From: a virus | DNA length: 64,000 bases | IMG/VR virus record: IMGVR_UViG_3300033074_002003 | Direction: 5' to 3' (one strand) | Shown: positions 23,189-63,630 of the stretch, piece by piece | Layout of the letters: every line of letters begins with the position of its first letter | Numbering within the stretch: the stretch's first letter is position 1 | Made by a program: the position numbers and the translations under genes | The notes under the pieces: model-generated | The model's database searches: none | Told to the model about the DNA's origin: nothing | The model's input: only the letters and a program-made list of their open reading frames with translations

Positions 23189-23784
23189 TGTGTTGGCTTT
23201 CTAAAAAGAACGACGGGTTCGCCGCCGATGGGTGCTGATGCCGTCCACGACAGGTTGTTTCCGAGAAATTCGTCTACTGCGGCTTTTACGCCCACCTTGT
23301 CAGTCTTCACTACGGGTGTGGCGCTCTCGATCTGCGAGTGTGTGTCGCGCTCGGAGTAAAAGAGGTCGCGCTCTGACCATTTTCCGAAGTAGTCATCTAC
23401 GATGAGGAGTCCATCGGGACTCAACAGGTCTTTCAAGAGGTCCAGCTCGCGACTCACCGTATAGTAGTTGTGATCGCCGTCGAGGAAGATGAGGTCGAAT
23501 TTCTCTGTGTTCGGTCCGAGAGTCGGCAGGTAATTCAAGCTGTTGTCAACAACGAACTTGAACTTGTCACTATCAAGAAATCCTGTGTACTTCAGGATCA
23601 CTTCAAGTGAGGCATCAAATCGAATATCGACGGACGTCACTTTGAAATCATTCTTCACGCGTGACAGCCAGAAGAGCATCGGAACGAGCGTCTGCCCACG
23701 GTCCACACCGATTTCAAGAATGTTTGGTCTTGAGACTCGTGAGAGAAACTGTTGTGCGACGGGAATGTAACCGTGATGGCTCAT
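23185..23784 (-). CDS. class I SAM-dependent methyltransferase, paralogue of 22409..23188; start at MSHHGYIP gives an ATGA overlap with the upstream gene
   Basis: ILEIGVDRGQT motif I; LIFLDGDHNY parallels LVYVDGDHRY in the paralogue. Confidence 0.65.
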   Translation of the reverse strand: MSHHGYIPVAQQFLSRVSRPNILEIGVDRGQTLVPMLFWLSRVKNDFKVTSVDIRFDASLEVILKYTGFLDSDKFKFVVDNSLNYLPTLGPNTEKFDLIFLDGDHNYYTVSRELDLLKDLLSPDGLLIVDDYFGKWSERDLFYSERDTHSQIESATPVVKTDKVGVKAAVDEFLGNNLSWTASAPIGGEPVVLFRKPTQ

Positions 23785-24050
23785 AGATTTTGCTCTCGCT
23801 TCTCGATTCCAATGATCTCTTGTCGACGAACGCAAAAGAGCAATTCGCCATCAACGGTGATCTGCTGCATGTGTGCAGATTTTGGAACAAAAATGATATC
23901 GTCCTCGATCGGAAGGGCCCCAACACACGAGATGACGCGCATCCTCTTACACGAAGAAGACGATGAATCGATCATGATGAGATCAGAATCAGAGCTCTTC
24001 TCTTCGATCTCTTTCACGAGAATGAAATCGTTCAGCATCTGTACGGGCAT
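23781..24050 (-). CDS. GroES/Cpn10-like co-chaperonin (analogue of T4 gp31)
   Basis: [22 protein letters not shown] aligns to GroES [31 protein letters not shown] ~ [25 protein letters not shown] ~ EEVLIMSESDILAIV; stop/start overlaps on both sides. Confidence 0.5.
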   Translation of the reverse strand: [89 protein letters not shown]

Positions 24051-25990: not shown

Positions 25991-26015
25991 AGCACGATGT
26001 TACAGCATTTGTCCC

Positions 26016-26152
26016 GATCTGTTCATTAAATTTGAACACCTGAGATCTCCCCTTAAATTAAGATCCAGATCAGATCTAGATCATTTAACAGATCGATCTC
26101 TTAACTGGTTAACCACTAGATCAGTTAATAGATCTGGAAGAGATCTAGATCA
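26016..26152. promoter_or_regulatory. GATC-saturated palindromic/iterated strand-switch region (divergent promoter region and/or origin-like element)
   Basis: 12 GATC sites in 137 bp; AGATCT four times; TAGATCA three times; AGATCTAGATCA twice; GGTTAACC palindrome at 26107-26114; lies between divergent operon starts. Confidence 0.6.
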
Positions 26153-26171
26153 GAAAGTGTATGTATCCTGA

Positions 26172-26633
26172 GTGCCTCCCCAAGTACCTCGTCGAGATCC
26201 GCGTGAAGAACCTCTCGAGGGGGAGAGATTTCATACTCCCCTGAGCGGGCAGGTCGGTATTTTTGAGGTTCTCTACTCTATCAAGGCAGAAGTAGGAACC
26301 GTTCACAAGCGCATCGACGAGATGCAACACACGATGACGCGCATAGGCGAGGAATCGTCTGTCAACGGACACAAGCTAACGAACCTCTCAGAGAAGCTCC
26401 TCGAACCAGACGAGGGACTGTTTGCCCGCGTTCGTGATATCGAGCGCAAGATCGAGCTCACCGAGAAGATAACGGAGAAGAAGGGCGACGAGACAGAAGC
26501 CGCTGTCAAACAAGTCGACAAGCTCGTCACGTGGAAAGACACGTGGGGCAAGGTGGGGTGGTACGTCCTCATCGCACTTGTCGGAGTTGTTTTGAAGTAC
26601 ATCTTTGATTTTCTGGTTACAAAGCCTAAGTGA
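26172..26633 (+). CDS. hypothetical coiled-coil protein with C-terminal transmembrane anchor (start may be ATG 26322)
   Basis: C-terminal hydrophobic VGWYVLIALVGVVLKYIFDFLV; the tool's start is GTG; stop overlaps the next gene's start (GTGA). Confidence 0.4.
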   Translation: MPPQVPRRDPREEPLEGERFHTPLSGQVGIFEVLYSIKAEVGTVHKRIDEMQHTMTRIGEESSVNGHKLTNLSEKLLEPDEGLFARVRDIERKIELTEKITEKKGDETEAAVKQVDKLVTWKDTWGKVGWYVLIALVGVVLKYIFDFLVTKPK

Positions 26634-27883
26634 CAGTCGAGATAGTTACGTCTTCTGACATCTCCGGACTTATTTGTGAAGTTGGAGAGCGACTCGAGAA
26701 TTTTTCCTCTCTTGTCGGGAGACTTAGCCCACAGCAGCTGTCTGCCGCGACTCTCGCGTTCCAAGATGGCTCCGAGAAGGTTGTCGCCCAACTGATGTTA
26801 GAGGCGGGATTTCGCGCCGAACGTGTCTGTCCGTACTCAGCTAGGGCTGCAATCCAGCTGGTCCTTGGTCACTCGAGAAAATTCTCTGGTGTACGTTCGG
26901 TGTACACAGCCGAAGGGCTGGAAGAATTCTTGAGTGACGTGACGAGGAAGATAGCACACGTGAGGGGCGCGTCGTTCTTTCCGAATGCGAGCGAATTTTG
27001 GGATGTTGTCTCTTCACACGCGTCTCACCGAGCTCTCGGTGTACTGCGCGACGCAATTTCGCTTGGCGGTTTTGACAGCAGATATGTCATCGAGAGAAGC
27101 AGCTCGCCTAACCCTGATGTCACTGTTGAGACTGTTTTAGGATACAACTTTTCGCTCGATTCGGCGGTGAACATCGATAGTTGGGAAGCTGAGAACGTGT
27201 CTCTTCTCATGGTCGACGGTGTGATCGAGTCTGTCACTGAGATTCATCGCGTCCTGACATTCGCCGCCGAGAAAAAAGTTCCGATTGTCATCGTCGCTCG
27301 TTCGTTTGCCGACGATGTGAGGCAGACGATCGTGACAAATAATGCCCGAAGGTCGTTCTCCGTCCTCCCAATTGTCGTACCAGCTGATGCTAGAAACATC
27401 AATACGATACGAGACATCTCTATCGTGTGTGGATCGAGCGTCGTTTCTTCGATAACTGGTGAGGTGCTGTCCGGAAAAACTGGCGAGTCACTGATCTCTG
27501 TGAACGCGGTGAGATTTTTGCGAGGAAACTTGACGATCGTGGGCGGAGAAAGAACTGCTGCTGCTACAGATGCTCACCGGTGCTCTTTGGTAGAGAGCAG
27601 GCAAGAGGCGCACCACGAGATGTTGCCACACTTTGACTCTCGCATCAAGTCGCTTACGCCGAATCACGTCTTGGTTCGCGTGCCGAGTCGAGGTCTTGAA
27701 GATTCAGGCCTATTTGACGACATCACGGACGTCTTCAGACTTGTGAGAGCAATTCACGAGTATGGTGTGCACATCGATGAAAATGGTGACATCGACGTCA
27801 CGCTCAGAGCGCTGTCGGCGCTTCGATTTGCCAAAGCACAGCTAAAGTTGCTATTTTCGCTCGGAGCGATCGTTGTAAACTAG
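26630..27883 (+). CDS. truncated, degenerate GroEL/Cpn60-like protein (apical plus intermediate domains, reduced equatorial domain)
   Basis: [14 protein letters not shown] ~ GroEL [61 protein letters not shown] ~ [58 protein letters not shown] ~ NKDTTTIIDGVGE; the GDGTTT ATP motif is replaced by QDGSEK; no GGG motif. Confidence 0.5.
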   Translation: [417 protein letters not shown]

Positions 27884-27886
27884 GGC

Positions 27887-28855
27887 TTACTTCGCTGCTG
27901 GTTTGAAGACTTTCAGCGCTTGATCGGGAGACATTTGTAGCTTCTGAAGCGCCGACGCGGCCCAATACAGGGCGCCTCTGGCGTCTCTCTTCTTGAGAGC
28001 CGAGTTCATACCGTTCAGCTGCTGCGCGACAGAGTGCTCTGGATCGCCGCCCTCGTCTCCTGTTTCGATCGGTCCGTCTTCTGGCGTACTCCGTGATGTC
28101 GTTCCTTGTGTGCTCTGCGATTGCCCCGCTTGATCTGCGGGTGCAGCTGCTTCAGGACTGCCCATTGTAGCCGCAACATCTGCCGGAGGGGGCGCCCCCA
28201 CACTGCGAATTTCTTGTGCAAATGCACGGAGCTGCGAAGGCTTGAGATTTGCGAGGTCATTCGCAAACATATCGCCGATCGAACCTTTCAACCCGAGAAG
28301 CTGGCTGAGCTTGCCGCCCGCGAGGCCCGAAAGTGAAGAGGTGTGTCCCGGATCGAAGGCTTTCTTTAGCGCAGCGATGACGTTGCCGCTGGCGGGTCCG
28401 TCCTGATCTGTCAGTGGATCGTCAGTCAATTTCTTTCCCTGCTGGTCGAGAAGCGTTCCGACGAGCTCCATGCCTGAAGACAGAAGTGTCTCAAGGGCCG
28501 CAGCTTTTGCGAGCGGGTTATTTGTCGAGGAGAGCGACCTCTTGAGGCGATCCCACCATCCTGCTCCCTGGTACGCGTTCAGTTCACTGACAACACCCGA
28601 GATCATTTTTGAGATGTTGGGCAACTGTCCGCCCTCACCGCCGAATTTTTCGAGCACAGACTCGAGACGCGAGACAGCTTTTGCAATCTTCTTTGCTTCG
28701 CCGCTGTCGATCTTCTCCTCATAGATCAGAGAGAGCGTCTCGTTCAACATCACCATTCGACCGTCAAACCGCTGGCGTGCCTCTCGCATGACAGTCGCCT
28801 TGGTCACAATCTCGTTCAGTTTGCGTGCGCGGTACGATTCTTCGAGCGTTTTCAT
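27887..28855 (-). CDS. hypothetical protein (coiled-coil N-terminus, G/S/A/P-rich low-complexity C-terminus); the only minus-strand gene in this stretch
   Basis: Long ORF with a consistent frame; no catalytic motifs. Confidence 0.4.
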   Translation of the reverse strand: MKTLEESYRARKLNEIVTKATVMREARQRFDGRMVMLNETLSLIYEEKIDSGEAKKIAKAVSRLESVLEKFGGEGGQLPNISKMISGVVSELNAYQGAGWWDRLKRSLSSTNNPLAKAAALETLLSSGMELVGTLLDQQGKKLTDDPLTDQDGPASGNVIAALKKAFDPGHTSSLSGLAGGKLSQLLGLKGSIGDMFANDLANLKPSQLRAFAQEIRSVGAPPPADVAATMGSPEAAAPADQAGQSQSTQGTTSRSTPEDGPIETGDEGGDPEHSVAQQLNGMNSALKKRDARGALYWAASALQKLQMSPDQALKVFKPAAK

Positions 28856-29208: not shown

Positions 29209-29679
29209 ATGGAAGCACTGAAACATCTCATAGAGTGCAACTGTATCCTCGCACAATTTGCGAAATCGCCCTCGCCGCCCTTTCACAAGTTTGTCGTATT
29301 TTCGCAGGTTGAAGACGACGGTCGCGTACTTGAAAAGCACGCGCAGTGTTCAAACTGCGGAGCAATTCACCGTGTCTACGACGTGTGCAAGAGCGAGGTA
29401 ATACCGAGAAAAGAGAGCTCTGCGATCGTAATGACGATCGATGACGTAAAGCCATCGCTCTCAAAAGACGTCTGCGACCTGCTCGAGAAGAATAACTGCG
29501 ATGTTTCGACGTGGGAGCACGTGCAGTTTATCATCGAGAACCAAAAGTGGGGAGAGCACGTAGTTCTCTCGTCTGAGAAAACAGGTACAGGGAAAGAGGG
29601 CAAGATCCTCAGGATTCTTGGCAACTCACTATTTCGCGTCCAGCCTTTCACGATAACAAATGAGGTAGAAATTGGCTAG
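29209..29679 (+). CDS. hypothetical Cys-rich (possible Zn-binding) protein
   Basis: ECNC and CSNC pairs. Confidence 0.35.
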   Translation: MEALKHLIECNCILAQFAKSPSPPFHKFVVFSQVEDDGRVLEKHAQCSNCGAIHRVYDVCKSEVIPRKESSAIVMTIDDVKPSLSKDVCDLLEKNNCDVSTWEHVQFIIENQKWGEHVVLSSEKTGTGKEGKILRILGNSLFRVQPFTITNEVEIG

Positions 29680-30492: not shown

Positions 30493-30620
30493 GCTCGACG
30501 AGATAAGAAAAAAAAGTGAGCCCATCGAAGTTTTTGTGGGATTTTCTTTTTACACTTTGGGATAGCGAGGTATTTATACTCTGAGCGTTGCAAAGCAAAA
30601 AGCTCGCAAGGAGAATCAAC

Positions 30621-30869
30621 ATGTCTGATACGGACGTACTCGTGAATTGGGATGGTGTGAAGGCGACTGTTACTGCTCTTGAGGAGGATGTCGTGAAGAA
30701 CCTCGTCAAGGGAAATGCGTCGGCTGGTGTTCGCGCACGCAAGGGCCTTCGCGCTCTCCGCGGGCAGCTCACCCTGATCGTGAAGCAGTCGATGGAGGCA
30801 GCAAAGGCTGCCCGCGCGGCCAAGCCGCCGAAGGCTCCGAAGGAGCCCAAGGCGAAGAAGAGCGCCTGA
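30621..30869 (+). CDS. histone H1-like (Hc1 family) DNA-binding protein
   Basis: KGNASAGVRARKGLRALRGQL ~ chlamydial Hc1 KGNKAAAQRVRTESIKL; K/A/P-rich tail AKAARAAKPPKAPKEPKAKK; AAGGAG RBS 7 nt upstream of the ATG. Confidence 0.55.
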   Translation: MSDTDVLVNWDGVKATVTALEEDVVKNLVKGNASAGVRARKGLRALRGQLTLIVKQSMEAAKAARAAKPPKAPKEPKAKKSA

Positions 30870-30962: not shown

Positions 30963-31208
30963 ATGCCATCACCAAGAAGCGTTCTCATTGATATCACGGA
31001 GAAGAATCTTGATCCTGAAGTTGCTCACGCACGTGTGGGTGCAAATGGACGACTTCGTTCCCCGACCGATGCAGAGACCGTAGAAGAGCAGGCGGTTGAA
31101 GTAGAAGCCGAAAAGCCCGTCAAGGCAGGACTTGTAGAGCTGGCAGACGCGCCGGTCGTCAAGAAAGAGCCAAAGGCGAAGAAGAAGCAGTCAGTCGACG
31201 ACGCGTAA
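30963..31208 (+). CDS. hypothetical protein with a lysine-rich C-terminus
   Basis: ORF following the terminator. Confidence 0.35.
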   Translation: MPSPRSVLIDITEKNLDPEVAHARVGANGRLRSPTDAETVEEQAVEVEAEKPVKAGLVELADAPVVKKEPKAKKKQSVDDA

Positions 31209-31478
31209 GCGGCGCTTGATCGTTCCTTCAATCTGACAGATTCTCATACGTGTGAGTCCATACAATTTTCCCACCTCTTCGAGGGTCTTCGCACCCTCGG
31301 ATGCAGAAATGATCGAGCAATTTTGTGCAGACGCCGCGGCAGCCAGCCAGTGTCTGCACGTGCTCTTTTTGCACGGTACGCGGTGCTTTGCGTGAGTCTC
31401 ATAACATGTGGGCATTTGTAGATCATCTCTCCGGTTACGCCTTAGAATCTCATACGTGACGCGTTGTTGTTCAAACAT
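31191..31478 (-). CDS. small Zn-finger protein whose C-terminus is a sigma-70 region 4.2-like HTH
   Basis: TLEEVGKLYGLTRMRICQIEGTIKRRL versus RpoD [28 protein letters not shown]; N-terminal C/H cluster PTCYETHAKHRVPCKKSTCRH. Confidence 0.6.
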   Translation of the reverse strand: MFEQQRVTYEILRRNRRDDLQMPTCYETHAKHRVPCKKSTCRHWLAAAASAQNCSIISASEGAKTLEEVGKLYGLTRMRICQIEGTIKRRLRVVD

Positions 31479-31493
31479 GAAAGAGTGTTCTTG

Positions 31494-32888
31494 ATGTCAA
31501 ATGCCGTGGAAAAGTGCTTTGTTCTAGACACAAATGTCCTTCTCAGCGATCCTTCGTCAATTTACTCGTTTGAAGAGCACACTGTAGTGATTCCGCTCAT
31601 TGTCCTCGAGGAACTCGATAGGCAGAAGAGCAGGCAGGACGAGGTCGGTAAGAGCGCTCGTGCGGTCGCGCGCGAGCTCGACGATCTGAGGGCGACTGGC
31701 AATTTGTTCGACGGAGTTCGCCTCGCTCACGGAACAGCGACGGGAATTCTTCAGATCAAAAGCCTCTCTAGCACGCTTTCACTCGATAAGCTACCACCTG
31801 AGCTTCGAACCGGAAGTGCTGACAATATCATCATTTCGCTTGCAAAGCTCCTTACTGACGTGCTGACGTCAAAAAAAGTCGTTCTTGTGTCGAAAGACAT
31901 CAACGTCAGGCTGAAGGCCGATTCTATCGGTGTGGTAGCAGATGACTACCTCAAGATGAGGGTGACCACAGACAAGGAACACATCTACGGCGGAGTGATG
32001 AGACTCGACGTGCCAGCCGACGTTCTTGAGAGGTTCTACACCGAAAAGAAGGTCGACGCCGTGGGCGATTTCTTTGACGTGCACGAATTTCAACCGAATC
32101 AGTTTGTCGTCATGAAGGACGTCGCCGCACCGGGAAAATCGGCCATCGGTCGGTTTGTCTTGGTGAATGGAATGCCGACGATCCAGCAGTTCAAGTTTGC
32201 TCGCGAAGCTATGGCTGTCTTCGGTGGGCTCGCTCCAAAGAACAAGGAGCAGATCTTTGCCCTTGAGTTGCTGCTCGATCCGAGCGTGAAGCTCGTGACG
32301 CTTCTCGGTGCCGCGGGAACAGGTAAGACACTCTTGTCTGTTGCTGCGGGACTGAACCAAGTAAGTGGCATCTCGGGGGTCGCAAACGCGCCGTACAGCA
32401 AGCTCATCGTGACGCGGCCGATCCAACCTCTCGGAAAGGACATCGGGTTCCTTCCCGGAACGCTCGAAGAGAAGATGGACCCGTGGATCTCACCGATCAA
32501 GGATTCACTCAACTTTCTCTTCGGGAAGCCGAAGGCAAAGCGTGAGGACGAGACGATGCTATCGATGCACCTCGAGAAAAAGAAGATCGAGATCGAAGCG
32601 CTGACATACATCCGCGGGCGCTCTATTCCAGACTCTTTCATCATCATCGACGAGGCACAGAACCTATCTGTTCACGAGCTGAAGACGATCATTACTCGCG
32701 TGAGCGAGGGAACGAAGATCGTCCTGACGGGAGACATTGAGCAGATCGACAACACGCACGTCGATGTATACTCGAACGGTCTGACACACGCCGTCGAGAA
32801 ATTCAAGTACTATCCGATTTCTGGGCACGTGACCATGCGAAAGGGCGAGCGTAGCGAGTTGGCGACGTTGGCCGCTAGTATTCTGTGA
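31494..32888 (+). CDS. phoH: PIN-domain / PhoH-like ATPase fusion (PhoH2/YlaK-like)
   Basis: N-terminal PIN FVLDTNVLLSD..IPLIVLEELD; Walker A LLGAAGTGKT; Walker B IIIDEAQN. Confidence 0.8.
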   Translation: MSNAVEKCFVLDTNVLLSDPSSIYSFEEHTVVIPLIVLEELDRQKSRQDEVGKSARAVARELDDLRATGNLFDGVRLAHGTATGILQIKSLSSTLSLDKLPPELRTGSADNIIISLAKLLTDVLTSKKVVLVSKDINVRLKADSIGVVADDYLKMRVTTDKEHIYGGVMRLDVPADVLERFYTEKKVDAVGDFFDVHEFQPNQFVVMKDVAAPGKSAIGRFVLVNGMPTIQQFKFAREAMAVFGGLAPKNKEQIFALELLLDPSVKLVTLLGAAGTGKTLLSVAAGLNQVSGISGVANAPYSKLIVTRPIQPLGKDIGFLPGTLEEKMDPWISPIKDSLNFLFGKPKAKREDETMLSMHLEKKKIEIEALTYIRGRSIPDSFIIIDEAQNLSVHELKTIITRVSEGTKIVLTGDIEQIDNTHVDVYSNGLTHAVEKFKYYPISGHVTMRKGERSELATLAASIL

Positions 32889-47457: not shown

Positions 47458-48286
47458 GCTCTCAGACGATCTTGTGCACTGTTGGGTCTGTGGCTATAGT
47501 TCGAGGAACCTTGTCCCGCTTCTCAGGAAGTTTGGAAGCCACGATGACCTGAGTTTCTACATCGAGAAGTCTGGGTCATCTCTCACATTTCAGAAGCCCG
47601 CCGAAGACGAAAGCGTTCCACTGAAGTTGCCCGAGGGGTTCAGGTTGATCGCCCCACTCATCGGCCGCGGCGATCGAGACGTTGTTCGTGCGATGCGATA
47701 CCTCAAGGAGCGCGGGCTCACAGCGTCAGACGCGTGGTACTACAAGTTTGGTGTCGCTCCGACGCTCCCAGATCGCGTCATCATGCCCTCATTCGATCAA
47801 GTGGGTGGGCTAAATTTCTGGACGGCCCGTTCGATCGTTGACGCTCGTCCGAAGTACATCGATCCCCCGAAGGAGTGTGTGAGGAAGAATGAGATCATCT
47901 TCAATGAGATCAACATTGACTGGAAGAAGGAGCTTGTCATCGTCGAGGGCCCATTTGACCTGACGAAGTGTCCCACCAATACGACAGCCCTTCGAGGCAA
48001 CCAACTCTCTGAAGAGTCTCGGCTACTTATACAGATCGTGATCCACGAGACTCCTTGTGTCGTGATGCTTGACGACGATGCAACTGATCGCGCCGGGAAA
48101 ATCGTGAGGACATTGGCGTCGTACGGCGTCACTGCAAAGCGCGCTAACCTCGGCGAATTTCACGATCCGGGCGAGATGACGAAGAAACAGGTTGCCGACT
48201 GCGTAAAAGCCGCACGTGAGCTACAATGGGAAGATCACCTCTCCGACAAGCTTTCTAAATTGGATCGCCTTCACCTCTCGTTTTGA
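47309..48286 (+). CDS. DnaG-type DNA primase (Zn ribbon plus TOPRIM), T4 gp61-like
   Basis: CPICLQQ..HCWVCGY zinc ribbon; TOPRIM ELVIVEGPFD and VVMLDDDATDRAG. Confidence 0.7.
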   Translation: MFALSDKVKFIERVFGKGDVTRNLTNIQVTCPICLQQSQKWSQKRKLAVRLSDDLVHCWVCGYSSRNLVPLLRKFGSHDDLSFYIEKSGSSLTFQKPAEDESVPLKLPEGFRLIAPLIGRGDRDVVRAMRYLKERGLTASDAWYYKFGVAPTLPDRVIMPSFDQVGGLNFWTARSIVDARPKYIDPPKECVRKNEIIFNEINIDWKKELVIVEGPFDLTKCPTNTTALRGNQLSEESRLLIQIVIHETPCVVMLDDDATDRAGKIVRTLASYGVTAKRANLGEFHDPGEMTKKQVADCVKAARELQWEDHLSDKLSKLDRLHLSF

Positions 48287-51200
48287 GGCACATGAAAATC
48301 TGTCACATCGCAGACATCCACATCCGTTCGATCAGCAGGCACGATGAGTACCGAACTGTGTTTCAGAGTCTCATCGACGACCTGAAAAAAGATCCCGTTG
48401 ACGTTATCTTTGTCGGGGGCGATGTCTGGCACACGAAAACAGCTGGGCTCACACCTGAGTACATCGACTTCATGCGGTGGTGGCTGACAGAGCTCGCGAA
48501 TTGTGCCGAGCTGTTTGTTACTCTTGGAAATCACGACGGAAATCTCGTCAACACTGACAGGCAGGATGCAGTGTCGCCGATCGTCGCCGCCCTCGCAAAC
48601 CCGCGCGTGAAGCTGTACAAGAAGAGCGGTGTATATGAGTTCAAGAAGGGCTGGAACTTCTGCGTCTACTCGCTATTCGATCGCGAGGGGTGGAAGAATG
48701 TATCACCCGAGAAGGGGAAGATCAACATCGCGTGCTATCACGGCGGTGTCAGGTCTTCTCTGACCGAGACGGGTTGGCCAATCGAAGAGGGCCCGTCTGT
48801 CGACTTCTTCGACGGGTATGACCTTGTCCTCCTCGGTGACATCCATCGCCAGCAGTTTCTCGGCAGCCCGAAGAACGGACAGCCGTGGATCGCGTACCCC
48901 GGAACGCCAGTCTGTCAGAACTACGCAGAGGGCTACCAGAAGCACGGGTACCTAAAATGGGTGCTGAATGATGACGGTGTCGTAAGCTCTGTTGATTTCG
49001 TCGAGCTGAAGCAACCGAACCCGTTCGTGACAGTCGACTGGGAGGGCGATCGAGAGAAGTTCGTCAAAGATATCGAGGAGCTTCCGGAGGCAGCGAGGTT
49101 CCGTGTCAAGAGCTCTGTGTTCGTATCACAGGATGACATGGGTGTCATCTCTGCGACACTGAAGAAGAAGAAATCGGCGATCGAAGTCGTCTTGAAGTCT
49201 GAGGTGACACACAAGAAGGACGTGTTCTCGGCGGGCGGCCTTGAGATGATGCGCGATGACTTGCGCAATGTCGAGGTCCTGACACTTCTCTTGAAGGATT
49301 TCTATCGCGGTATCTCTATCAGCAATTCTGAGTGGGATGACGTCACGAAACTCGTTGAGAAGTACTTGCGATCGGCTTCGAGTGACGACGAGTCACCGCG
49401 ACACGTCAAGTGGAGAATCGGCGAATTCTCGTTCGAGAACCTGTACTCTTACGGGCTCGGCAACAAGATCAACTTTGAGAAGCTGTCTGGTATCGTCGGA
49501 ATTTTCGGACCTAACAGGTCTGGGAAGTCATCGATCGTCGGGACGATGATGTATGGTCTCTTCAACACGACAGATCGCGGGGCGGTCAAAAACCTTCAGA
49601 TCGTAAATGACAGGAAGTCCTCCGGCGAGGCGAAGATCGCACTTCAGGTGGGTGAAGCGAAGTACGTGCTGACGCGTGAGACAAACAAAACAGACACGAA
49701 GAAGGGCATCACAGTCGCGGCCACTTCACTCGATCTGAGGCGTATCGCCGCTGACGGCTCTCTTGTGAACATGAACGGTGAGCAGAGAAATGACACCGAG
49801 AAGACGATCAGGAAGTTGATCGGTACACAGGACGATTTCCTGCTCACGTCAATGTCAACACAGGGTGATCTGAACAAGTTCATCAACGAGGGCTCTGCCT
49901 TCAGGAAACTGATTCTCACGAAGTTCCTCGACCTCGACATCTTTGAGAAGATGCACGAAGCAGCCAAAGCAGAGCTCAAAGCGGCGACAGCGATATCAAA
50001 GACGATCCCAAAGCGTGATTGGCCAGCAGAGCTAAAGAAGATCGACACAAAGCTGTCTAATTTTGATGACTTCGCAGAGAAGATCGAGACAAAGCTGTCT
50101 GAGCTTCGGGCATCGCTGCATACCGCACAGGTGAAGCTCGCGCTGTATAAAAACACCTCAACTGTGTCAGAGGACGAAATTTCTGCCGCAGTAGCTCTTC
50201 TAGAGTCGTACGTTGCTTCTTCTGAAGCGCTCGAAGTGCAGCTCAAGAAGCTTCGCCTCTCGCTGGAAAATGGTCACGATGCCCACGCTCGCGTCCTATC
50301 CCTTCTCGAGAACTACGACGCAGAACAGCTACGAATTGAGCGTGATAACGGCGTAGCACTAAAATCTGCGGCAAAGACGCTTGAGGCACAGCTCACTCGC
50401 GCGAAAGAGGATGTCGAGAGGTTGAAGAGGTCCGCAAAGAAGCTAAGTGTCGTCCCATGCGAAGACAAGTTTCCCACGTGCATGTTCATCAAAGACTCTC
50501 ACGTCGATAGGGGAGAACTACCCGCCGCAGAACAGAATGTCGCCGAACTAGAAAAATCTCTCGAGAGCACAAATTCGGCATTTTCTGACTGGCAGAAGCT
50601 CGATACGGAGAAGAAGTTCGCAGAGCACGCTCGCCTCCTGACAGAAGAGAGGTCACTCGCAAACGCTATCTCGGCGTCAGAGGTGTCGGTCACAAAGACA
50701 GAGAGCCAACTTAGTATTGCGAACGCGAAGCGCGGAGCACAGAAGATCAAGGTCGATGAGCTCGTCGAGGCTGCGGCTCGTGCGGAGAGTGTCGAGGCAC
50801 TTACTCTCCAGAGAGAGTGCGACTCGATCAACGAAGACATCAAGCGTTACGACAAAATGAAAGTCGATGCCGCCACCAGTCGCGGCAAATTTGAGACTGA
50901 GGCGAAGCAGCTGAAGTCACAGCAGTCACAGTACGAAAAAGTTCAGCATGACATTCACGTGACGGAGCTGATCTCAGAGGCTTTCTCGAAGCGCGGAATT
51001 CCCACGAAAATCATCAATTCGCAGCTGCCGGCGATAAACGCTACTGTCGCTGAAATTCTCCATGGCGTTGTGGATTACACGATTGAGTTCGTTGCGGACG
51101 AGGACTCGAACGCCCTTGACGTGATCTTGAACTACGGCGATTCAAAGAGGGTTATCGAGCTCGGATCTGGCATGGAGAAACTATTTGCGTCACTTGCAAT

Positions 51201-51438
51201 CAGGGTGGCACTTCACACGATCACCTCGCTCCCAAAGACCGACATGTTTGTCATTGACGAAGGATTTGGCTCTCTGGACGACCTCAATGTGGAGCCCTGT
51301 AATCGCCTCTTGAGATCGCTGAAGAGGTACTTCGGAACGGTGATTGTCATCACACACGTGGGTGGTATCAAGGATTCTGCCGACACGATCATTGAGATCG
51401 CTCGAGACGGAAAAGACTCGAAGGTGGTCGCAGAATGA
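48283..51438 (+). CDS. single-polypeptide fusion of Mre11/SbcD-like nuclease (T4 gp47-like) and Rad50/SbcC-like ABC ATPase (T4 gp46-like)
   Basis: N-terminal phosphoesterase motifs ICHIADIHI, FVGGDVWH, TLGNHD; Walker A FGPNRSGKSS at ~aa 410; long coiled coil with CEDKFPTC hook-like motif; signature GSGMEK; Walker B MFVIDEGFGSLD; H-loop IVITHV. Confidence 0.75.
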   Translation: MRHMKICHIADIHIRSISRHDEYRTVFQSLIDDLKKDPVDVIFVGGDVWHTKTAGLTPEYIDFMRWWLTELANCAELFVTLGNHDGNLVNTDRQDAVSPIVAALANPRVKLYKKSGVYEFKKGWNFCVYSLFDREGWKNVSPEKGKINIACYHGGVRSSLTETGWPIEEGPSVDFFDGYDLVLLGDIHRQQFLGSPKNGQPWIAYPGTPVCQNYAEGYQKHGYLKWVLNDDGVVSSVDFVELKQPNPFVTVDWEGDREKFVKDIEELPEAARFRVKSSVFVSQDDMGVISATLKKKKSAIEVVLKSEVTHKKDVFSAGGLEMMRDDLRNVEVLTLLLKDFYRGISISNSEWDDVTKLVEKYLRSASSDDESPRHVKWRIGEFSFENLYSYGLGNKINFEKLSGIVGIFGPNRSGKSSIVGTMMYGLFNTTDRGAVKNLQIVNDRKSSGEAKIALQVGEAKYVLTRETNKTDTKKGITVAATSLDLRRIAADGSLVNMNGEQRNDTEKTIRKLIGTQDDFLLTSMSTQGDLNKFINEGSAFRKLILTKFLDLDIFEKMHEAAKAELKAATAISKTIPKRDWPAELKKIDTKLSNFDDFAEKIETKLSELRASLHTAQVKLALYKNTSTVSEDEISAAVALLESYVASSEALEVQLKKLRLSLENGHDAHARVLSLLENYDAEQLRIERDNGVALKSAAKTLEAQLTRAKEDVERLKRSAKKLSVVPCEDKFPTCMFIKDSHVDRGELPAAEQNVAELEKSLESTNSAFSDWQKLDTEKKFAEHARLLTEERSLANAISASEVSVTKTESQLSIANAKRGAQKIKVDELVEAAARAESVEALTLQRECDSINEDIKRYDKMKVDAATSRGKFETEAKQLKSQQSQYEKVQHDIHVTELISEAFSKRGIPTKIINSQLPAINATVAEILHGVVDYTIEFVADEDSNALDVILNYGDSKRVIELGSGMEKLFASLAIRVALHTITSLPKTDMFVIDEGFGSLDDLNVEPCNRLLRSLKRYFGTVIVITHVGGIKDSADTIIEIARDGKDSKVVAE

Positions 51439-56384: not shown

Positions 56385-57248
56385 ATGAGCAGCAAAGCAC
56401 ACAACAAGCGTAGGAATGCGGGACTCCTGTACGAGTTTCTCTTCAGAGCCGCATCAACTGCGATCGTCGATGGCGATCACGAAAAGAGTGCAGCCGCCCT
56501 TGCGATCATCAAGAAGTATTTCAACAAGGACGGCGAGCTCTACAGAGAGTATCGGCTCTTCAATTCGTTGATGAAGGTCGAAGTGAAGTCTGAGGCCGTC
56601 GCGTCAACTATCCTTCGTGAGGCCGCGCTCGCGGCGAAATCTCTTCAGACAGAGGCCGTTCAGAAGAAGAAGACGGCACTGATCAACGAAATCAACAAGA
56701 CGTTCGATGATCCCACGTTCTGGGACGCGCCGATCGCTAACTACAAGATTTACGCTACGATCGGTACTCTGATCTCGGAGTGGTCAGAGCAGTCTGGCAA
56801 GGTAGACATTCAGAGGCTTGCGGAGCTCGAAGACAGGCTGGTATCTTGGCTCCGTGAGAACAAGTCAGCGGTGCAGGAAGCAGAGCCGACGAAGAGGGAC
56901 GGAACAGAGAGGCTTGCCCTCCGACTGGCACTCAGAAAATTCAACGAGAAATATGCCGGTACTCTACAGACAGAGCAAAAGGACATTATCAGGTTGTGGG
57001 CCCTGTCACACCAGAGCGGGAAAGCCGAACCTGTCACCAAGTTTCTCGCAGAGGTAAAATCGTCCACACTTGCAGCGATAGACGTTGCGGTAAAAGACCC
57101 CGAGCTGGCTCTTCTTCACGAGGGGATCAAGTCTACGCGTGAGAAGATCGAATCCGAAAAACTTGAAGAGGTGAATGACGAGACGGTCACTAGGTTTGTC
57201 CTCTATTCGCACCTCAAATCTGAGCTCACAAAGCGAGGGGACACATGA
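56385..57248 (+). CDS. putative prohead core / internal protein
   Basis: Between portal and prohead protease, ATGA coupled; helical K/E-rich composition. Confidence 0.35.
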   Translation: MSSKAHNKRRNAGLLYEFLFRAASTAIVDGDHEKSAAALAIIKKYFNKDGELYREYRLFNSLMKVEVKSEAVASTILREAALAAKSLQTEAVQKKKTALINEINKTFDDPTFWDAPIANYKIYATIGTLISEWSEQSGKVDIQRLAELEDRLVSWLRENKSAVQEAEPTKRDGTERLALRLALRKFNEKYAGTLQTEQKDIIRLWALSHQSGKAEPVTKFLAEVKSSTLAAIDVAVKDPELALLHEGIKSTREKIESEKLEEVNDETVTRFVLYSHLKSELTKRGDT

Positions 57249-57877
57249 AACTTCTTGAGACATTCGACGAATTTGAGTACAAGCTCATCACAGAGGCCGC
57301 GCCCGTACCTGTAGAAGTAGAGGACGAGAGTGGTAACAAGGTTTCGCTTCCTGGCAAGCCGAAACTCATGATGAAGGGCATCTTGCAGAAGGCCGATACG
57401 CTCAACCAGAACGGCAGGATCTACCCTAAGGCGATCCTAGAGCGCGAGATTCGCAACTACCAGAAGTTCATCAACGAGAACCGCGCTCTGGGGGAAATTG
57501 ATCACCCGGACTCTTCTGTTGTGGAGCTGAAGCGCGTCTCTCACATTATTCGCGAGGCACACATGGAGGGAAATACCGTCATCGGAACGGTGGAAATTCT
57601 CCCAACACCCTCGGGCAATATTCTACGAGATCTGGTCGAGGCGAAGGTGAAGCTCGGAATCTCGTCGCGCGGTGTCGGCTCTACGAAGAAAGACGGTGAC
57701 TACTACGTCGTTCAGGACGATTTCCAACTGATCTGCTGGGACTTCGTGTCCGAGCCGTCGACACCGGGAGCGTTCATGATGGCCGAGGGCAAGACGTTGA
57801 CTGACAGCGAACTGCGCAAGATCTTCAATAGGTCTGACAGGATTTCGCGAATCCTAAACGACATCCTGGACAAGTGA
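57245..57877 (+). CDS. 21: prohead core protease (T4 gp21-like)
   Basis: Position between portal and scaffold; collinear resemblance to gp21-family proteases (GEIDHPDSS..SSRGVGS). Confidence 0.65.
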   Translation: MKLLETFDEFEYKLITEAAPVPVEVEDESGNKVSLPGKPKLMMKGILQKADTLNQNGRIYPKAILEREIRNYQKFINENRALGEIDHPDSSVVELKRVSHIIREAHMEGNTVIGTVEILPTPSGNILRDLVEAKVKLGISSRGVGSTKKDGDYYVVQDDFQLICWDFVSEPSTPGAFMMAEGKTLTDSELRKIFNRSDRISRILNDILDK

Positions 57878-57901
57878 TCGCGAGCGGTGTAATGTACAGG
57901 G

Positions 57902-58393
57902 ATGAATATCGTAAAATTCCCTAACACAGCGCTTCGCGTCCCATGTGTCGATGTCTCGCGCGAAGATGATATCTCTGATCTCATAAAAGAGATGATTGAT
58001 ACGATGTATGCGAACAACGGCGTCGGTCTTGCGGCACCGCAGGTAAATGTGCACAAAGCGCTGTTTGTGATGGATTGGACGGGCGGAGACAGGAATGACA
58101 CTCTGACTGTCGTCATCAACCCCGTGATCATCTCACACTCTGGAGACGACCAACAAGTCTCACCAGAAGGGTGTCTCTCGATCCCTGGTGTATTTGCGAA
58201 TGTCAACCGGCGGTCTTCTATTGTGGCTACGTGGTTCAACGAAAAAAGAGAACCCATCACAAAAGAACTATCGGGCCCCGAAGCGGCGATTTTTCAGCAC
58301 GAACTTGACCACCTCGGTGGTATTGTATTCACAGACAGGTTGTCTCAGTTTGCGAAGAAGCTCGCATTCAAAGGGTATGGAAATCAGTCATGA
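57902..58393 (+). CDS. def: peptide deformylase
   Basis: Three PDF motifs GVGLAAPQV, EGCLSIPG and QHELDHLGG. Confidence 0.9.
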   Translation: MNIVKFPNTALRVPCVDVSREDDISDLIKEMIDTMYANNGVGLAAPQVNVHKALFVMDWTGGDRNDTLTVVINPVIISHSGDDQQVSPEGCLSIPGVFANVNRRSSIVATWFNEKREPITKELSGPEAAIFQHELDHLGGIVFTDRLSQFAKKLAFKGYGNQS

Positions 58394-61722: not shown

Positions 61723-63630
61723 ATGAAGAAGTTTTCACTCGAGCAGCTCTCGGAAGGTATCCGAGACCGCAATCTCTCAGCTGATGGCAAGCGTCTAGTT
61801 GAGAAGTGGAGCCGCACAGGACTCCTCAGGGGCCTCGATGGCGTGAAGCGCGACAACATGGCGCGTCTCCTCGAGAACCAGGCAGCGCAGCTCCTCAAGG
61901 AGACGAACGCAATCAGCACTGGTGCTGGTGGCCTCACGTCTTCGGGACAGATCCAGGGTTTCGCGAACATCGCGTTCCCAATGGTTCGCAGGGTTTTCGG
62001 TGGCCTCGTTGCCAACGAGCTCGTGTCGATCCAGCCGATGTCGCTCCCGTCGGGCCTCATCTTCTACGTCGACTACACCTACGGTAACAACGTCGGTGGT
62101 GACTCTGGCGTGGCACTGAGCTCGGGCGCAACGACCCCGACATATCAGCGCGGACAGTCGATCTACAACAACCCGGTGGGCCGCGGCATTCAGTCCGGTT
62201 CTCTCGCGGCTGGTGGTATGTACGACCTCGTCGGTGACGGTTACTCCAAGGTTCACCTCAACAGCACGACCCTCTCCGGATCGAACGTCTGGACGGGCGC
62301 GTGGACGACCGGTCCTTCCGAGTCGTGGACCGCTTCGGGTACAGTCGGTGCAGCAACTGACTTCACGGGCACAAACGCGGTGAACGCGCAGTTCGACCCA
62401 CAGGTCGAGGCTGACCTCGCCTCCAACACGCTCGACTTCACGTTCGTTCACATCCCGGTCTCTGACTTCAGGACCGCGATCCCGAACGGCGACCTCACGG
62501 CCCTCGACCAGATCAACCTCTACGGTGTCTCGATCACCCAGGGCGCGACGGCATGGGGTTCTTCGTACCAGGCAGGTGCAGGCGTCCTGAACCTTCGCAG
62601 GCTCACGCGCCGCGGTAACTTCTCCGCGACAGCGAAGACGTTCACCGTCGATCCGTTCAACGGAACGCACATCCAGTTCGTGGTTCGCCTCACCAACGGT
62701 GGAACGGCTCCGAACGTCGGTCTTGCAAACTCCGTGTCAATGGCAACAGCTGACGCAGTGAGGAACGCAGACCTCGGCACGCCGGGCACCGTCCTGACGA
62801 TTCCGTCGTTCGAGTCTGACTTCGGCGCGACACCTTCTCCGGCAATCCCAGAGATTGACATCAAGGTGGAGTCGATCGCCGTGACAGCGACCACGCGCAA
62901 GCTGCGCGCAAAGTGGACCCCTGAGCTTGCTCAGGACCTCAATGCGTACCAGTCGCTGGACGCAGAGGTTGAGCTCACGCAGATCCTCTCGGAGCAGATT
63001 GCTCTCGAGATTGACCGCGAGATCCTTCAGGACCTCCTGATGCAGGCAAACGGCGCATCGCTCTTCTGGAGCCGCGCACCTGGCAAGTTCGTGAACAAGA
63101 TCACCGGCTCGCCGGTTTCCCTTGCGAACAGCCTCTCGATCGGTCCGGCATTCACCGGCACCGTGCGCGACTGGTACGAGACGCTCATTGAGACGATCAT
63201 TGACGTGTCGAATACCATTCACCGCAAGACGCTCCGCGGCTCGGCGAACTTCATCGTGGTGTCTCCGGACGTCGCGACGATCCTCGAGGCAAGCGTTGCC
63301 TACAGGCCGAAGGTTTCGATCGACGGCGACGGGCAGGTCTCTGCGACCTTCTCGATCGGTGCGGAGGCTGTTGGCACGCTCAACAACCGCTTCACCGTGT
63401 ACAAGGACCCGTACTTCCCACGCAACAAGATCCTTGTTGGGTTCAAGGGCGGCGGATTCCTCGAGACCGGGTATGTGTACGCTCCGTACGTACCGCTCAT
63501 CGTCACCCCGACGCTCTTTGCGCCGGAGGACTTCACTCCACGTAAGGGCGTGATGACCCGCTACGGCAAGAAAATGGTCCGCTCGGACTTCTACGGCGTG
63601 GTCACGGTTCTCGACATGAATATCATTTAG
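61723..63630 (+). CDS. 23: major capsid protein (T4 gp23-like)
   Basis: AFPMVRRVFGGLVANELVSIQPMSLPSGLIFYVDY ~ gp23 P(I/M)IRRVFP.LIANEIVSVQPM..P.GL.FY signature. Confidence 0.85.
   Translation: MKKFSLEQLSEGIRDRNLSADGKRLVEKWSRTGLLRGLDGVKRDNMARLLENQAAQLLKETNAISTGAGGLTSSGQIQGFANIAFPMVRRVFGGLVANELVSIQPMSLPSGLIFYVDYTYGNNVGGDSGVALSSGATTPTYQRGQSIYNNPVGRGIQSGSLAAGGMYDLVGDGYSKVHLNSTTLSGSNVWTGAWTTGPSESWTASGTVGAATDFTGTNAVNAQFDPQVEADLASNTLDFTFVHIPVSDFRTAIPNGDLTALDQINLYGVSITQGATAWGSSYQAGAGVLNLRRLTRRGNFSATAKTFTVDPFNGTHIQFVVRLTNGGTAPNVGLANSVSMATADAVRNADLGTPGTVLTIPSFESDFGATPSPAIPEIDIKVESIAVTATTRKLRAKWTPELAQDLNAYQSLDAEVELTQILSEQIALEIDREILQDLLMQANGASLFWSRAPGKFVNKITGSPVSLANSLSIGPAFTGTVRDWYETLIETIIDVSNTIHRKTLRGSANFIVVSPDVATILEASVAYRPKVSIDGDGQVSATFSIGAEAVGTLNNRFTVYKDPYFPRNKILVGFKGGGFLETGYVYAPYVPLIVTPTLFAPEDFTPRKGVMTRYGKKMVRSDFYGVVTVLDMNII

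Follow-up and report, generated by a model that had tools for sequence, protein, structure and literature searches.

The window considered here is a 64,000-nucleotide stretch of DNA from the IMG/VR virus record IMGVR_UViG_3300033074_002003. On its plus strand, at positions 26630-27883, lies a gene that begins with GTG and encodes a GroEL-like protein of 417 residues, an open reading frame (ORF) already singled out in a sequence-only reading of the same DNA. The protein displays the three-domain fold of a group I chaperonin, its equatorial domain being reduced. It belongs to the short "type A" of a GroEL-fold viral family that, very probably, is functional and does without the canonical ATP site. 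The sequence-only reading had proposed a GroEL-derived viral protein unable to bind nucleotide canonically, unlike known phage chaperonins, and this core idea is retained, as the nucleotide elements are absent; its depiction of the protein as an apical domain only, as a one-off and as linked to a GroES-like gene is not.

The locus and the integrity of the gene

Directly upstream of the GroEL-like gene is a gene (26172-26633, plus strand) for a 153-residue coiled-coil protein with a C-terminal transmembrane helix, referred to here as the partner. Its TGA stop codon overlaps the start of the GroEL-like gene; the overlap reads AAG TGA with a GTG start and is hence of the GTGA type, not the ATGA coupling originally described. 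Downstream, a convergent gene on the opposite strand (27887-28855) ends 3 nt past the GroEL-like stop codon, so that neither a lost C-terminal exon nor a continuation in another frame would fit. A tblastn search with E. coli GroEL matched a single locus in the window, the GroEL-like gene itself. The exact same protein is present on at least 15 contigs from several samples, and an orthologue at 89% identity (locus L001), also of 417 residues and with identical neighbours, occurs on four independent aquatic-metagenome contigs. Between the window gene and this orthologue, synonymous divergence (dS) is 0.89 and nonsynonymous divergence (dN) 0.058, for a dN/dS ratio of 0.066, and the ratio lies between 0.03 and 0.09 in each of four segments of the gene, the equatorial remnants included. 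This pattern of substitution shows a functional gene under strong purifying selection. The frameshift that the sequence-only reading had allowed for is rejected, on the nearby convergent gene, the length of the orthologue, the dN/dS ratio, the size of the family and the lack of other GroEL pieces in the window.

Relationship to GroEL

In a phmmer search against PDB sequences, the protein matched Thermus GroEL at E=4.7e-10, residues 43-398 aligning with GroEL 60-424. PHROG 5725 ("chaperonin groEL") also matches it (1.2e-12), as do the NCBIfam GroEL models (TIGR02348 and related), the best at 1.5e-13 and 49.9 bits against a cut-off of 352 (cut-offs range from 352 to 1041). The test that the sequence-only reading had itself named, a match to Pfam Cpn60_TCP1 (PF00118), came out negative even at E<=1, and two members of the longer "type B" introduced below likewise have no Pfam match. 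The curated Pfam and NCBIfam thresholds for group I chaperonins are thus failed by the window protein.

Kinship becomes far clearer at the level of the family. An alignment of 141 family members (A1), used as a profile, matches GroEL chains at E ~2e-42 over GroEL residues ~17-519, interrupted by a single large gap; a second alignment (A2) was also used. The AlphaFold2 model based on A1 has a mean predicted local distance difference test score (pLDDT) of 94.5 and a predicted template modelling score (pTM) of 0.84; a prediction from the single sequence was unusable (pLDDT 38.8). With the A1-based model, Foldseek matched whole GroEL/Hsp60 chains at E values down to 4e-26, and 408 model residues align to a full Cpn60 chain. 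The confident model and the whole-chain matches therefore describe a complete three-domain subunit, comprising equatorial, intermediate and apical domains, rather than the apical-domain mini-protein first envisaged; it is the equatorial domain that has been trimmed.

What is kept and what is deleted

The protein is 131 residues shorter than GroEL, and the losses can be placed from segment lengths between conserved landmarks together with the secondary structure of the model: ~18 residues between helix A and helix B, ~75 between the hinge glycine G410 and helix R, ~25 at the C-terminus (the Gly-Met tail) and ~13 elsewhere. The N-terminal equatorial part (residues 1-114; 26630-26971) comprises strand 1, helix A and helices B-E in the model and is the least conserved portion, at 0.6-1.5 bits per site. 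The first ~40 residues had been thought missing, but a strand at residues 4-7 and a helix at 8-28 correspond to GroEL strand 1 and helix A, and the actual loss is internal. Between the modelled helices 8-28 and 34-42, a five-residue loop, VGRLS (residues 29-33; 26714-26728), stands in place of GroEL 29-52, which holds the T-L-G-P-K-G nucleotide loop and the stem-loop hairpin. Consistent with this placement, 63 residues precede the column of E64, compared with 81 in GroEL. A little further on, the segment CPYSAR (residues 67-72; 26828-26845) occupies, by alignments and column counts, the place that the phosphate loop G86-D-G-T-T-T91 has in GroEL. The segment QDGSEK, previously taken as the replacement of GDGTTT, pairs instead with GroEL E63-N68 in the HMMER alignments.

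The first intermediate-domain segment of the model (residues 115-170; 26972-27139) ends at the hinge glycine G171, the equivalent of GroEL G192, which is conserved in 139 of the 141 members. It leads into the apical domain (residues 171-345; 27140-27664), the most conserved region at 2.12 bits per site, in which T233 and N237 (GroEL T261 and N265) are invariant. The second intermediate-domain segment (residues 346-379; 27665-27766), equivalent to helix M and carrying the family motif D-x-x-L-R, ends at the other hinge glycine, G379 (GroEL G410; 136/141).

Shortly after this hinge is the deletion junction (residues 383-388, DENGDI; 27776-27793), where GroEL G414-G-G416 aligns to D-E-N. GroEL 417-494 is absent, and with it helices N-Q, the hairpin that follows them, the inter-ring contacts and the N479/A480 adenine pocket; the alignment picks up again at GroEL I493-L-D-P-T-K-V. 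The claim that the C-terminal half of the equatorial domain is missing altogether is therefore right for GroEL ~417-494 and wrong for what follows. The C-terminal equatorial remnant (residues 380-417 and the stop codon; 27767-27883) retains, by alignments and model, the equivalents of helix R and the last strand (GroEL ~495-525) and has no Gly-Met tail. Across the family, the segment from G410 to helix R is bimodal in length, at ~28 or ~45-58 residues versus 104 in GroEL. The tail occurs in none of the 141 members, 10 residues following the last conserved helix position versus 35 in GroEL.

A "split chaperonin", with the deleted ~78 residues (GroEL 417-494) supplied in trans by the ~81-residue neighbours, orf156, orf322 or the partner, was also considered and rejected: profile hidden Markov models of these candidates against GroEL gave negative bit scores, and hhalign of the two ~81-residue ORFs against GroEL returned a probability of ~0.1%.

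Loss of the nucleotide site and ring contacts

The nucleotide, magnesium and potassium site of GroEL was represented by 25 positions, which are, from the GroEL-ATPgammaS and GroEL-GroES-ADP structures, T30-P33, K51-G53, D87-T91, I150/S151, D398, G414-G416, I454, Y478-A481, I493 and D495. When these were mapped onto the 141 family members, not one proved to be conserved; the best, G88, is kept in 32 of 141, and eight fall in deleted segments for which the family has no column. The motif GDG[TS][TS] occurs in no family member. The window protein itself agrees with GroEL at two of the 25 positions, D367 (D398) and D389 (D495), in columns that are unconserved in the family (2/141 and 5/141, respectively). 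The absence of canonical ATP-binding elements, as proposed from the sequence, is thus borne out family-wide. Similarly, the inter-ring contact residues A109, E434, D435, R452, E461, S463 and V464 have no family column, K105 being the sole contact outside the deleted segments. At the former phosphate-loop position the family has instead a consensus of [PA]-G-[SG], preceded by a near-invariant glutamate, E64 (132/141).

The conserved apical face and hinges

Conservation along the protein runs opposite to that in canonical GroEL, being strongest in the apical domain and weakest in the equatorial remnants. The helix H and I equivalents reach 2.3-2.6 bits per site, and the individual apical residues that stand out are T261 and N265 (each 141/141), E257 (as Asp or Glu in 141/141), L237 (125/141) and R268 (123/141). 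Such a distribution would place the functional center of the protein in the apical domain.

In GroEL, the groove between helices H and I that receives substrate and the GroES mobile loop is lined by Y199, Y203, F204, L234, L237, L259, V263 and V264, residues reportedly identified by Fenton and co-workers in 1994. The family retains L237, N265 and, in 76 of 141 members, V264; L234 is replaced by His (85 members) or Asp (36), V263 by Lys or Arg (74), and Y199 falls in a gap. Since the groove is partly polar, a specific ligand is favored over promiscuous hydrophobic binding. Of the "ATP-independent holdase" initially suggested, ATP independence remains the likely reading, the canonical nucleotide pocket having been lost, while the holdase part, still conjectural, fits only partly with such a groove.

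A large family restricted to viruses

A word-indexed search returned the identical cluster, a cluster at 89% identity, one distant full-length Cpn60 and nothing else. An exhaustive HMMER search of 1.84 billion representatives, by contrast, recovered 1006 proteins at E<=1e-3, of which 656 also pass E<=1e-10 and 45 pass E<=1e-30; nearly all of the best 150 matches are 360-480 residues long. The window protein matches family representatives at E values from 6e-56 downwards. The protein evolves fast, identity across the lineage being 25-30%. Family members are defined by a length of 360-480 residues, the replacement of the phosphate loop by E-x-x-x-[PA]-G-[SG] and the deletion of helices N-Q, a description that the window protein fits. 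They also share the apical motifs D-G-x-[IV]-E-x-V-x-E-I-H and V-N-x-x-R and, in synteny across 89 loci, a position upstream of orf156, ClpP and PhoH. When sub-family alignments were run against IMG/VR, 7 loci were confirmed at first and 106 later, the contigs being up to 340 kb long.

Searches elsewhere were negative. Essentially the same peptide pattern gave no confirmed relative among 185,579 bacterial and archaeal species, represented by one genome each, and a cellular or prophage origin was rejected on that result. With three different family members as queries, all tblastn matches among 50,697 GenBank phage records were to canonical GroELs of full length (23-26% identity), and BFVD contained no family member, only viral GroELs of 511-609 residues and one CCT-like protein of 782 residues. 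No description of truncated or ATP-site-less viral chaperonins was found in the open-access literature, although an earlier description elsewhere is possible. The window protein is not a one-off truncation: the family to which it belongs is very large and old, is restricted to viruses and evolves under purifying selection. In these searches this family of GroEL paralogues, apparently undescribed, was found only in big aquatic viruses.

The upstream partner

The partner is predicted to be, as the sequence-only reading had it, a small membrane-anchored protein, with a strong C-terminal hydrophobic helix. The predicted transmembrane (tail-anchor) helix spans residues 132-150 (26565-26621), with a Kyte-Doolittle 19-mer maximum of 2.25 at residue 132, and ends three residues from the C-terminus. 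Partner homologues cluster together in 54 loci and, in all 54, sit at the position immediately upstream of the GroEL-like gene. Type A partners are 145-215 residues long, and in every one the 19-mer of highest hydrophobicity is no more than ~17 residues from the C-terminus. The hallmark motif, L-E-P-D-E-G-L-F-A-R-V at residues 77-87 in the window (26400-26432; alignment A4), corresponds to a family pattern, Y-[DE]-P-[DE]-x-G-[LI]-[FY]-[AS]-[RK]-[IVL], found in 46 of 48 unique partners; the sequence L-N-G-G-F is shared as well. The dN/dS ratio of the partner is 0.029. Against Pfam, PHROG, NCBIfam and PDB, it showed no family match beyond coiled-coil noise. An assignment as XhlA/"hemolysin" was discarded, since 3 of 20 members match, at E>0.03, and nothing in PDB is significant. 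In several type B loci, where the genes further upstream differ, the GroEL-like gene is again immediately preceded by one for a small membrane protein.

Between the operon formed by the partner and GroEL-like genes (plus strand) and a divergent operon on the minus strand, which includes a GT2-like gene and a Cpn10-like gene, is an intergenic region of 181 nt (25991-26171) that contains 12 GATC sites in a series of AGATCT/AGATCA repeats. Nowhere else in the window are GATC sites so dense, although GATC is ~2-fold over-represented overall (543 sites versus ~250 expected), and the orthologous region of L001 (9360-9542) also contains 12. The array may serve a methylation-sensitive or dedicated regulator.

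The Cpn10-like gene

The sequence-only reading had noted a GroES/gp31-like gene ~2.5 kb away, and there is indeed a weakly Cpn10-like gene 2.6 kb from the GroEL-like gene, the second gene of the divergent operon (23781-24050, minus strand). Its 89-residue product scores below the Pfam Cpn10 cut-off (E=0.0014; 19.1 bits versus 21.1) and matches the PHROG and NCBIfam GroES models at 2.8e-6 and 9.7e-5, respectively. One segment (…SDSDLIMIDSSSS…) resembles the mobile loop, whereas the roof hairpin of GroES, ~11 residues long, is missing; its dN/dS ratio is 0.225, compared with 0.01-0.07 in neighboring genes. Only the window, L001 and L004 have such a gene, in each case 2.6 kb away on the other strand. 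In the other loci, no Cpn10-like ORF was detected within ~8 kb by jackhmmer searches of all ORFs or by Pfam searches of small ORFs at offsets -1 and -3, and the small ORFs directly upstream in type B are not Cpn10. Given this limited occurrence, the Cpn10-like gene was rejected as a conserved co-factor: it is no family-level partner, its link to the GroEL-like protein is doubtful, and the companion that is conserved is instead the membrane protein encoded upstream. The Cpn10-like product may, as T4 gp31 does, serve the host GroEL.

Phage and genomic context

Other genes of the window identify the virus as a phage with a gp23-type major capsid protein, a portal, a large terminase and a T4-type prohead protease. 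The nearest relatives of the capsid protein are from Microcystis phage Mel-JY01, uncultured huge phages and Flavobacterium phages, and the contig of this phage is up to 306 kb long. In a lineage of large aquatic myoviruses that belongs to the T4 superfamily, the family gene keeps a conserved position. The capsid gene (61723-63630, plus strand) encodes 635 residues, of which the best PHROG "major head protein" stretch covers 364-617; its N-terminal half is thus unusually divergent or extended relative to typical T4-like capsid proteins.

Genomic context was compared by BLAST clustering of the ORFs of 89 loci. Most constant is orf156, which is present in 85 of these loci and at position +2 or +3 in 80. 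The surrounding block also includes a PhoH/PIN gene (82 loci), a ~81-residue ORF (76), a helicase (73), a 95-residue sigma-70 region-4 protein (70) and ClpP (64). Two arrangements can be distinguished. In type A, which includes the window, the GroEL-like protein has ~370-430 residues and is preceded by the same-strand gene for a 145-215-residue protein and then by a divergent gene for a 646-residue GT2-like protein (Pfam), which is found at position -2 in 52 loci. In type B, the protein has ~450-470 residues and its gene lies downstream of DUF444-like, SpoVR and PrkA genes, often with an intervening small ORF that has one or two N-terminal hydrophobic helices. The type B trio is seen at 2707-7162 of L005 and in L006, L007, L011, L067, L069, L075, L083 and L089 (PrkA, E 4e-137; SpoVR, E 1e-118), directly upstream of the GroEL-like gene. 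Its genes are homologous to those of the yeaG-yeaH-ycgB stress operon of bacteria, and PrkA homologues are known as well from Ralstonia phage RsoM2USA, from Thermus phages and from uncultured huge phages.

Within the block, orf156 (29209-29679, plus strand; 156 residues) is the best-conserved gene, with a dN/dS ratio of 0.011 and matches at E 1e-42 to 1e-47 to distant IMG/VR loci. It has the cysteine pattern C-x-C … C-x-x-C and no significant match in Pfam (noise at E~0.1-0.3), PHROG, NCBIfam or a tblastn search of GenBank phages. The most shared neighbor after orf156 is the PIN-domain/PhoH fusion (31464-32888, plus strand; 474 residues), with E values of 1e-89 to 1e-106 to distant loci. Between ClpP and PhoH there is a chlamydial-type histone H1-like protein (30588-30869, plus strand; Pfam Hc1, E 1.9e-8) and likewise the 95-residue protein, which consists of sigma-70 region 4 only and is encoded at 31191-31478 on the minus strand (E 1.9e-6). 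The nearby ClpP was considered as a prohead protease that would tie this module to head assembly, and was rejected: a T4-type Peptidase_S77 adjoins the capsid gene, and ClpP therefore has a separate function.

Upstream, the long run of minus-strand genes at 1-25990 encodes several glycosyltransferases, among them GT1, GT2 and the GT2-like protein of 646 residues. Methyltransferases of class I are encoded there too, with a Methyltransf_24 match in the orthologous locus. This sugar-modification island is kept upstream of the GroEL-like gene in type A loci; L001 and L004 carry an inserted GIY-YIG gene that the window lacks. Elsewhere in the window, one ORF of 1051 residues (48283-51438, plus strand) is SbcD-like over residues 1-371 and SbcC-like over 261-1049, apparently a fused Mre11/Rad50-type nuclease. 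In the head-morphogenesis block, a peptide deformylase (Pep_deformylase, E 5.8e-45) directly follows the prohead protease (Peptidase_S77, E 7.5e-28) at 57245-58393 on the plus strand, and a homologue of this deformylase lies two genes downstream of the GroEL-like gene in L006 (6293-6781).

Comparison with known systems

Relative to group I GroEL/Cpn60 proteins (E. coli GroEL; Chlamydomonas Cpn60-beta1, PDB 5cdi), the viral protein lacks LGPKG, GDGTTT, GGG, helices N-Q, the GGM tail and the inter-ring contacts, the stem-loop is missing in the window sub-lineage, and the conservation gradient is inverted. Nor does it have an adjacent groES, as group I chaperonins do. With the curated thresholds failed, the nucleotide site, C-terminal tail and groES adjacency lacking, and the fold alone present, the window protein is not filed as a GroEL; it is a variant outside GroEL proper.

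The chaperonins of Pseudomonas phage EL (gp146, PDB 6tmt), phage OBP (gp246, 6hdd) and Bacillus phage AR9 are described as ATP-dependent (PMC7185714, PMC9598537), in agreement with the sequence-only reading, which had cited the EL group as full-length ATPases. These proteins are full-length, at 511-609 residues, and the family does not conform to this full-length (~520-560 residues), ATP-dependent type. In the known viral GroELs of virioplankton, the ATP/ADP-Mg sites are the most conserved, 21 of 25 residues being identical or synonymous (Marine et al., 2017; PMC5649160), as opposed to none of 25 conserved in the short family. Flavobacterium phage immuto is among the cultured phages whose capsid protein is most similar to that of the window (49% identity across 60% of the query). 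Its groES and groEL form an ordinary pair, the GroEL having 544 residues and an intact GDGTTT. The immuto GroEL scores 140.6 bits against the family profile, and E. coli GroEL 125.5 bits, values that fit, but do not prove, derivation of the short family from a phage-borne groEL.

The nearest natural precedent for a GroEL with a degenerate ATP site is provided by chlamydial GroEL2 (Ct604) and GroEL3 (Ct755), which are full length and cellular (PMC1892554). NCBIfam models for "variant chaperonin GroEL2/GroEL3" match the window protein and the family weakly. Unlike the viral protein, the chlamydial variants (models of 506-533 residues) retain an entire equatorial domain, and they lack a membrane partner. 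Engineered minichaperones, which consist of the GroEL apical domain (191-345/376), are reported by Zahn and co-workers in 1996 to act without ATP. The apical domain of the viral model superposes on them, a check that had been proposed at the outset, at 2.1-2.4 A with 23-25% identity (PDB 1kid, 1jon), and they constitute the engineered precedent for nucleotide-free action of this domain (PMC4973282). The viral protein, for its part, is natural, its groove is partly polar, and it is not restricted to an apical domain, as both intermediate segments with their hinges and a compact equatorial remnant are modelled confidently. A final parallel is with T4 gp31 and RB49 CocO, which are GroES-like proteins of phages with gp23-type capsids; folding of T4 gp23 needs host GroEL and the phage co-chaperonin gp31 (PMC3012670). 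The Cpn10-like protein of the window differs in being weakly similar, without a roof hairpin and confined to one sub-lineage.

Proposed function and alternatives

Taken together, these features are compatible with a GroEL-like protein that acts as an ATP-independent binding module, in which the conserved face of apical helices H and I would grip a specific client or partner segment. The protein would act with the tail-anchored coiled-coil partner, translated just ahead of it from the same message, and the pair would therefore probably work at the cytoplasmic face of the inner membrane. We would give this ATP-free mechanism with a membrane partner an even chance. Two ligands may be suggested by analogy, both speculatively: the invariant P-x-x-G-[LI]-[FY] loop of the partner, which has the format of the GroES mobile loop (a glycine followed by hydrophobic residues), or phage proteins that need folding help, such as the 635-residue gp23-type capsid protein. 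A fuller picture, put forward tentatively and on the doubtful side, is that of a trimmed GroEL subunit of large aquatic phages, perhaps forming no closed cage, that would work independently of nucleotide, be recruited to the inner membrane by the tail-anchored protein and receive the partner loop in its apical groove, the two constituting a new chaperone/co-factor pair for phage morphogenesis or membrane-associated assembly.

Several observations weigh against this proposal. With the intra-ring stem-loop and the inter-ring contacts deleted, the protein may be unable to build a cage like that of GroEL. The partial loss of hydrophobicity in the H/I groove (L234 to His/Asp, V263 to Lys/Arg) speaks against a general holdase, and the resemblance to the mobile loop is one of format. 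The link to the partner is one of synteny and translational coupling only; the upstream proteins of type B are not homologous to the type A partner, and a small membrane ORF is lacking in some loci. The conservation of the hinge glycines suggests that the domains move, yet the proposal names no energy source for this, and E64 together with the [PA]-G-[SG] loop could, from its conservation, form a new ligand site.

One alternative is that the GroEL fold has been redeployed in a non-chaperone role, for example as a membrane-proximal assembly platform or adaptor, held by the partner, for the glycosyltransferase island or for the initiation of head assembly. That the ATP site, the GGM tail and the ring contacts are gone would agree with this, as would the partly polar groove, family-specific invariant residues such as the E-I-H motif and the Lys/Arg at V263, the adjoining GT2-like gene of type A (at -2 in 52 loci) and the membrane partner. 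However, type B loci hold the GroEL-like gene without a GT2 neighbor, and a glycosyltransferase link is therefore not universal, while the most conserved residues are the peptide- and GroES-binding ones of GroEL (N265, L237, T261 and R268) and the hinges, which suggests that a binding-and-hinge mechanism has been retained. A scaffold of this kind seems rather unlikely. Distinctly unlikely is a modulator or decoy of the host chaperonin, the apical face of which would bind host GroES or the phage Cpn10-like protein, or dock on host GroEL, and so steer folding toward phage clients. The helix H/I face is indeed the most conserved part of the protein, the phage has a gp23-type capsid protein, the T4 counterpart of which depends on host GroEL and a phage co-chaperonin for folding (PMC3012670), and the window sub-lineage carries a Cpn10-like gene in the divergent operon. 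That gene, though, has no counterpart near the family gene in the other loci examined, co-assembly into GroEL rings would need the stem-loop and the equatorial contacts, which are deleted, a monomeric decoy would be needed in stoichiometric amounts, and the hosts of so diverse a family must differ widely, the protein itself evolving fast (25-30% identity).

A cryptic ATPase, that is, a nucleotide-driven chaperonin with a non-canonical site around E64 and the [PA]-G-[SG] loop, is very improbable. It could draw on the conservation of E64 (132/141), on a small-residue loop still located at the N-terminus of the helix D equivalent, on the conserved hinge glycines and on the alignment of D367 and D389 of the window protein with GroEL D398 and D495. 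Yet the last two are shared by 2 and 5 of 141 members, D87, T89-T91, T30-P33, G414-G416, N479-A481 and I493/D495 are all deleted or unconserved family-wide, and the entire adenine/ribose pocket (helices N-Q and strand 476-485) is gone. Finally, a decaying groEL pseudogene, or a frameshifted or misassembled full-length groEL, could be imagined for a short, motif-poor protein without a Cpn60_TCP1 match, and is practically ruled out by the identical protein on at least 15 contigs from several samples, an orthologue of equal length at a dN/dS ratio of 0.066, similarly short lengths across hundreds of family clusters, the compact and confident AlphaFold2 model and the lack of a second GroEL piece in the window, no neighbor encoding the missing segment.

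Significance

In the textbook view GroEL is an ATP-driven folding cage, and the phage chaperonins characterized so far are full-length ATPases. Here, at least 656 clusters at 50% identity keep the fold, the hinges and the binding face and lose the ATP pocket and the ring contacts, which raises the question of what the GroEL scaffold can do without its engine, one that a natural system, and not only engineered minichaperones, may answer. The family profile could annotate genes that curated models miss. If the partner does dock in the apical groove, it would represent a new type of co-factor for a chaperonin-fold protein, and a "dark" pair of hallmark genes from aquatic jumbo phages of a widespread lineage acquires a name and a testable hypothesis.

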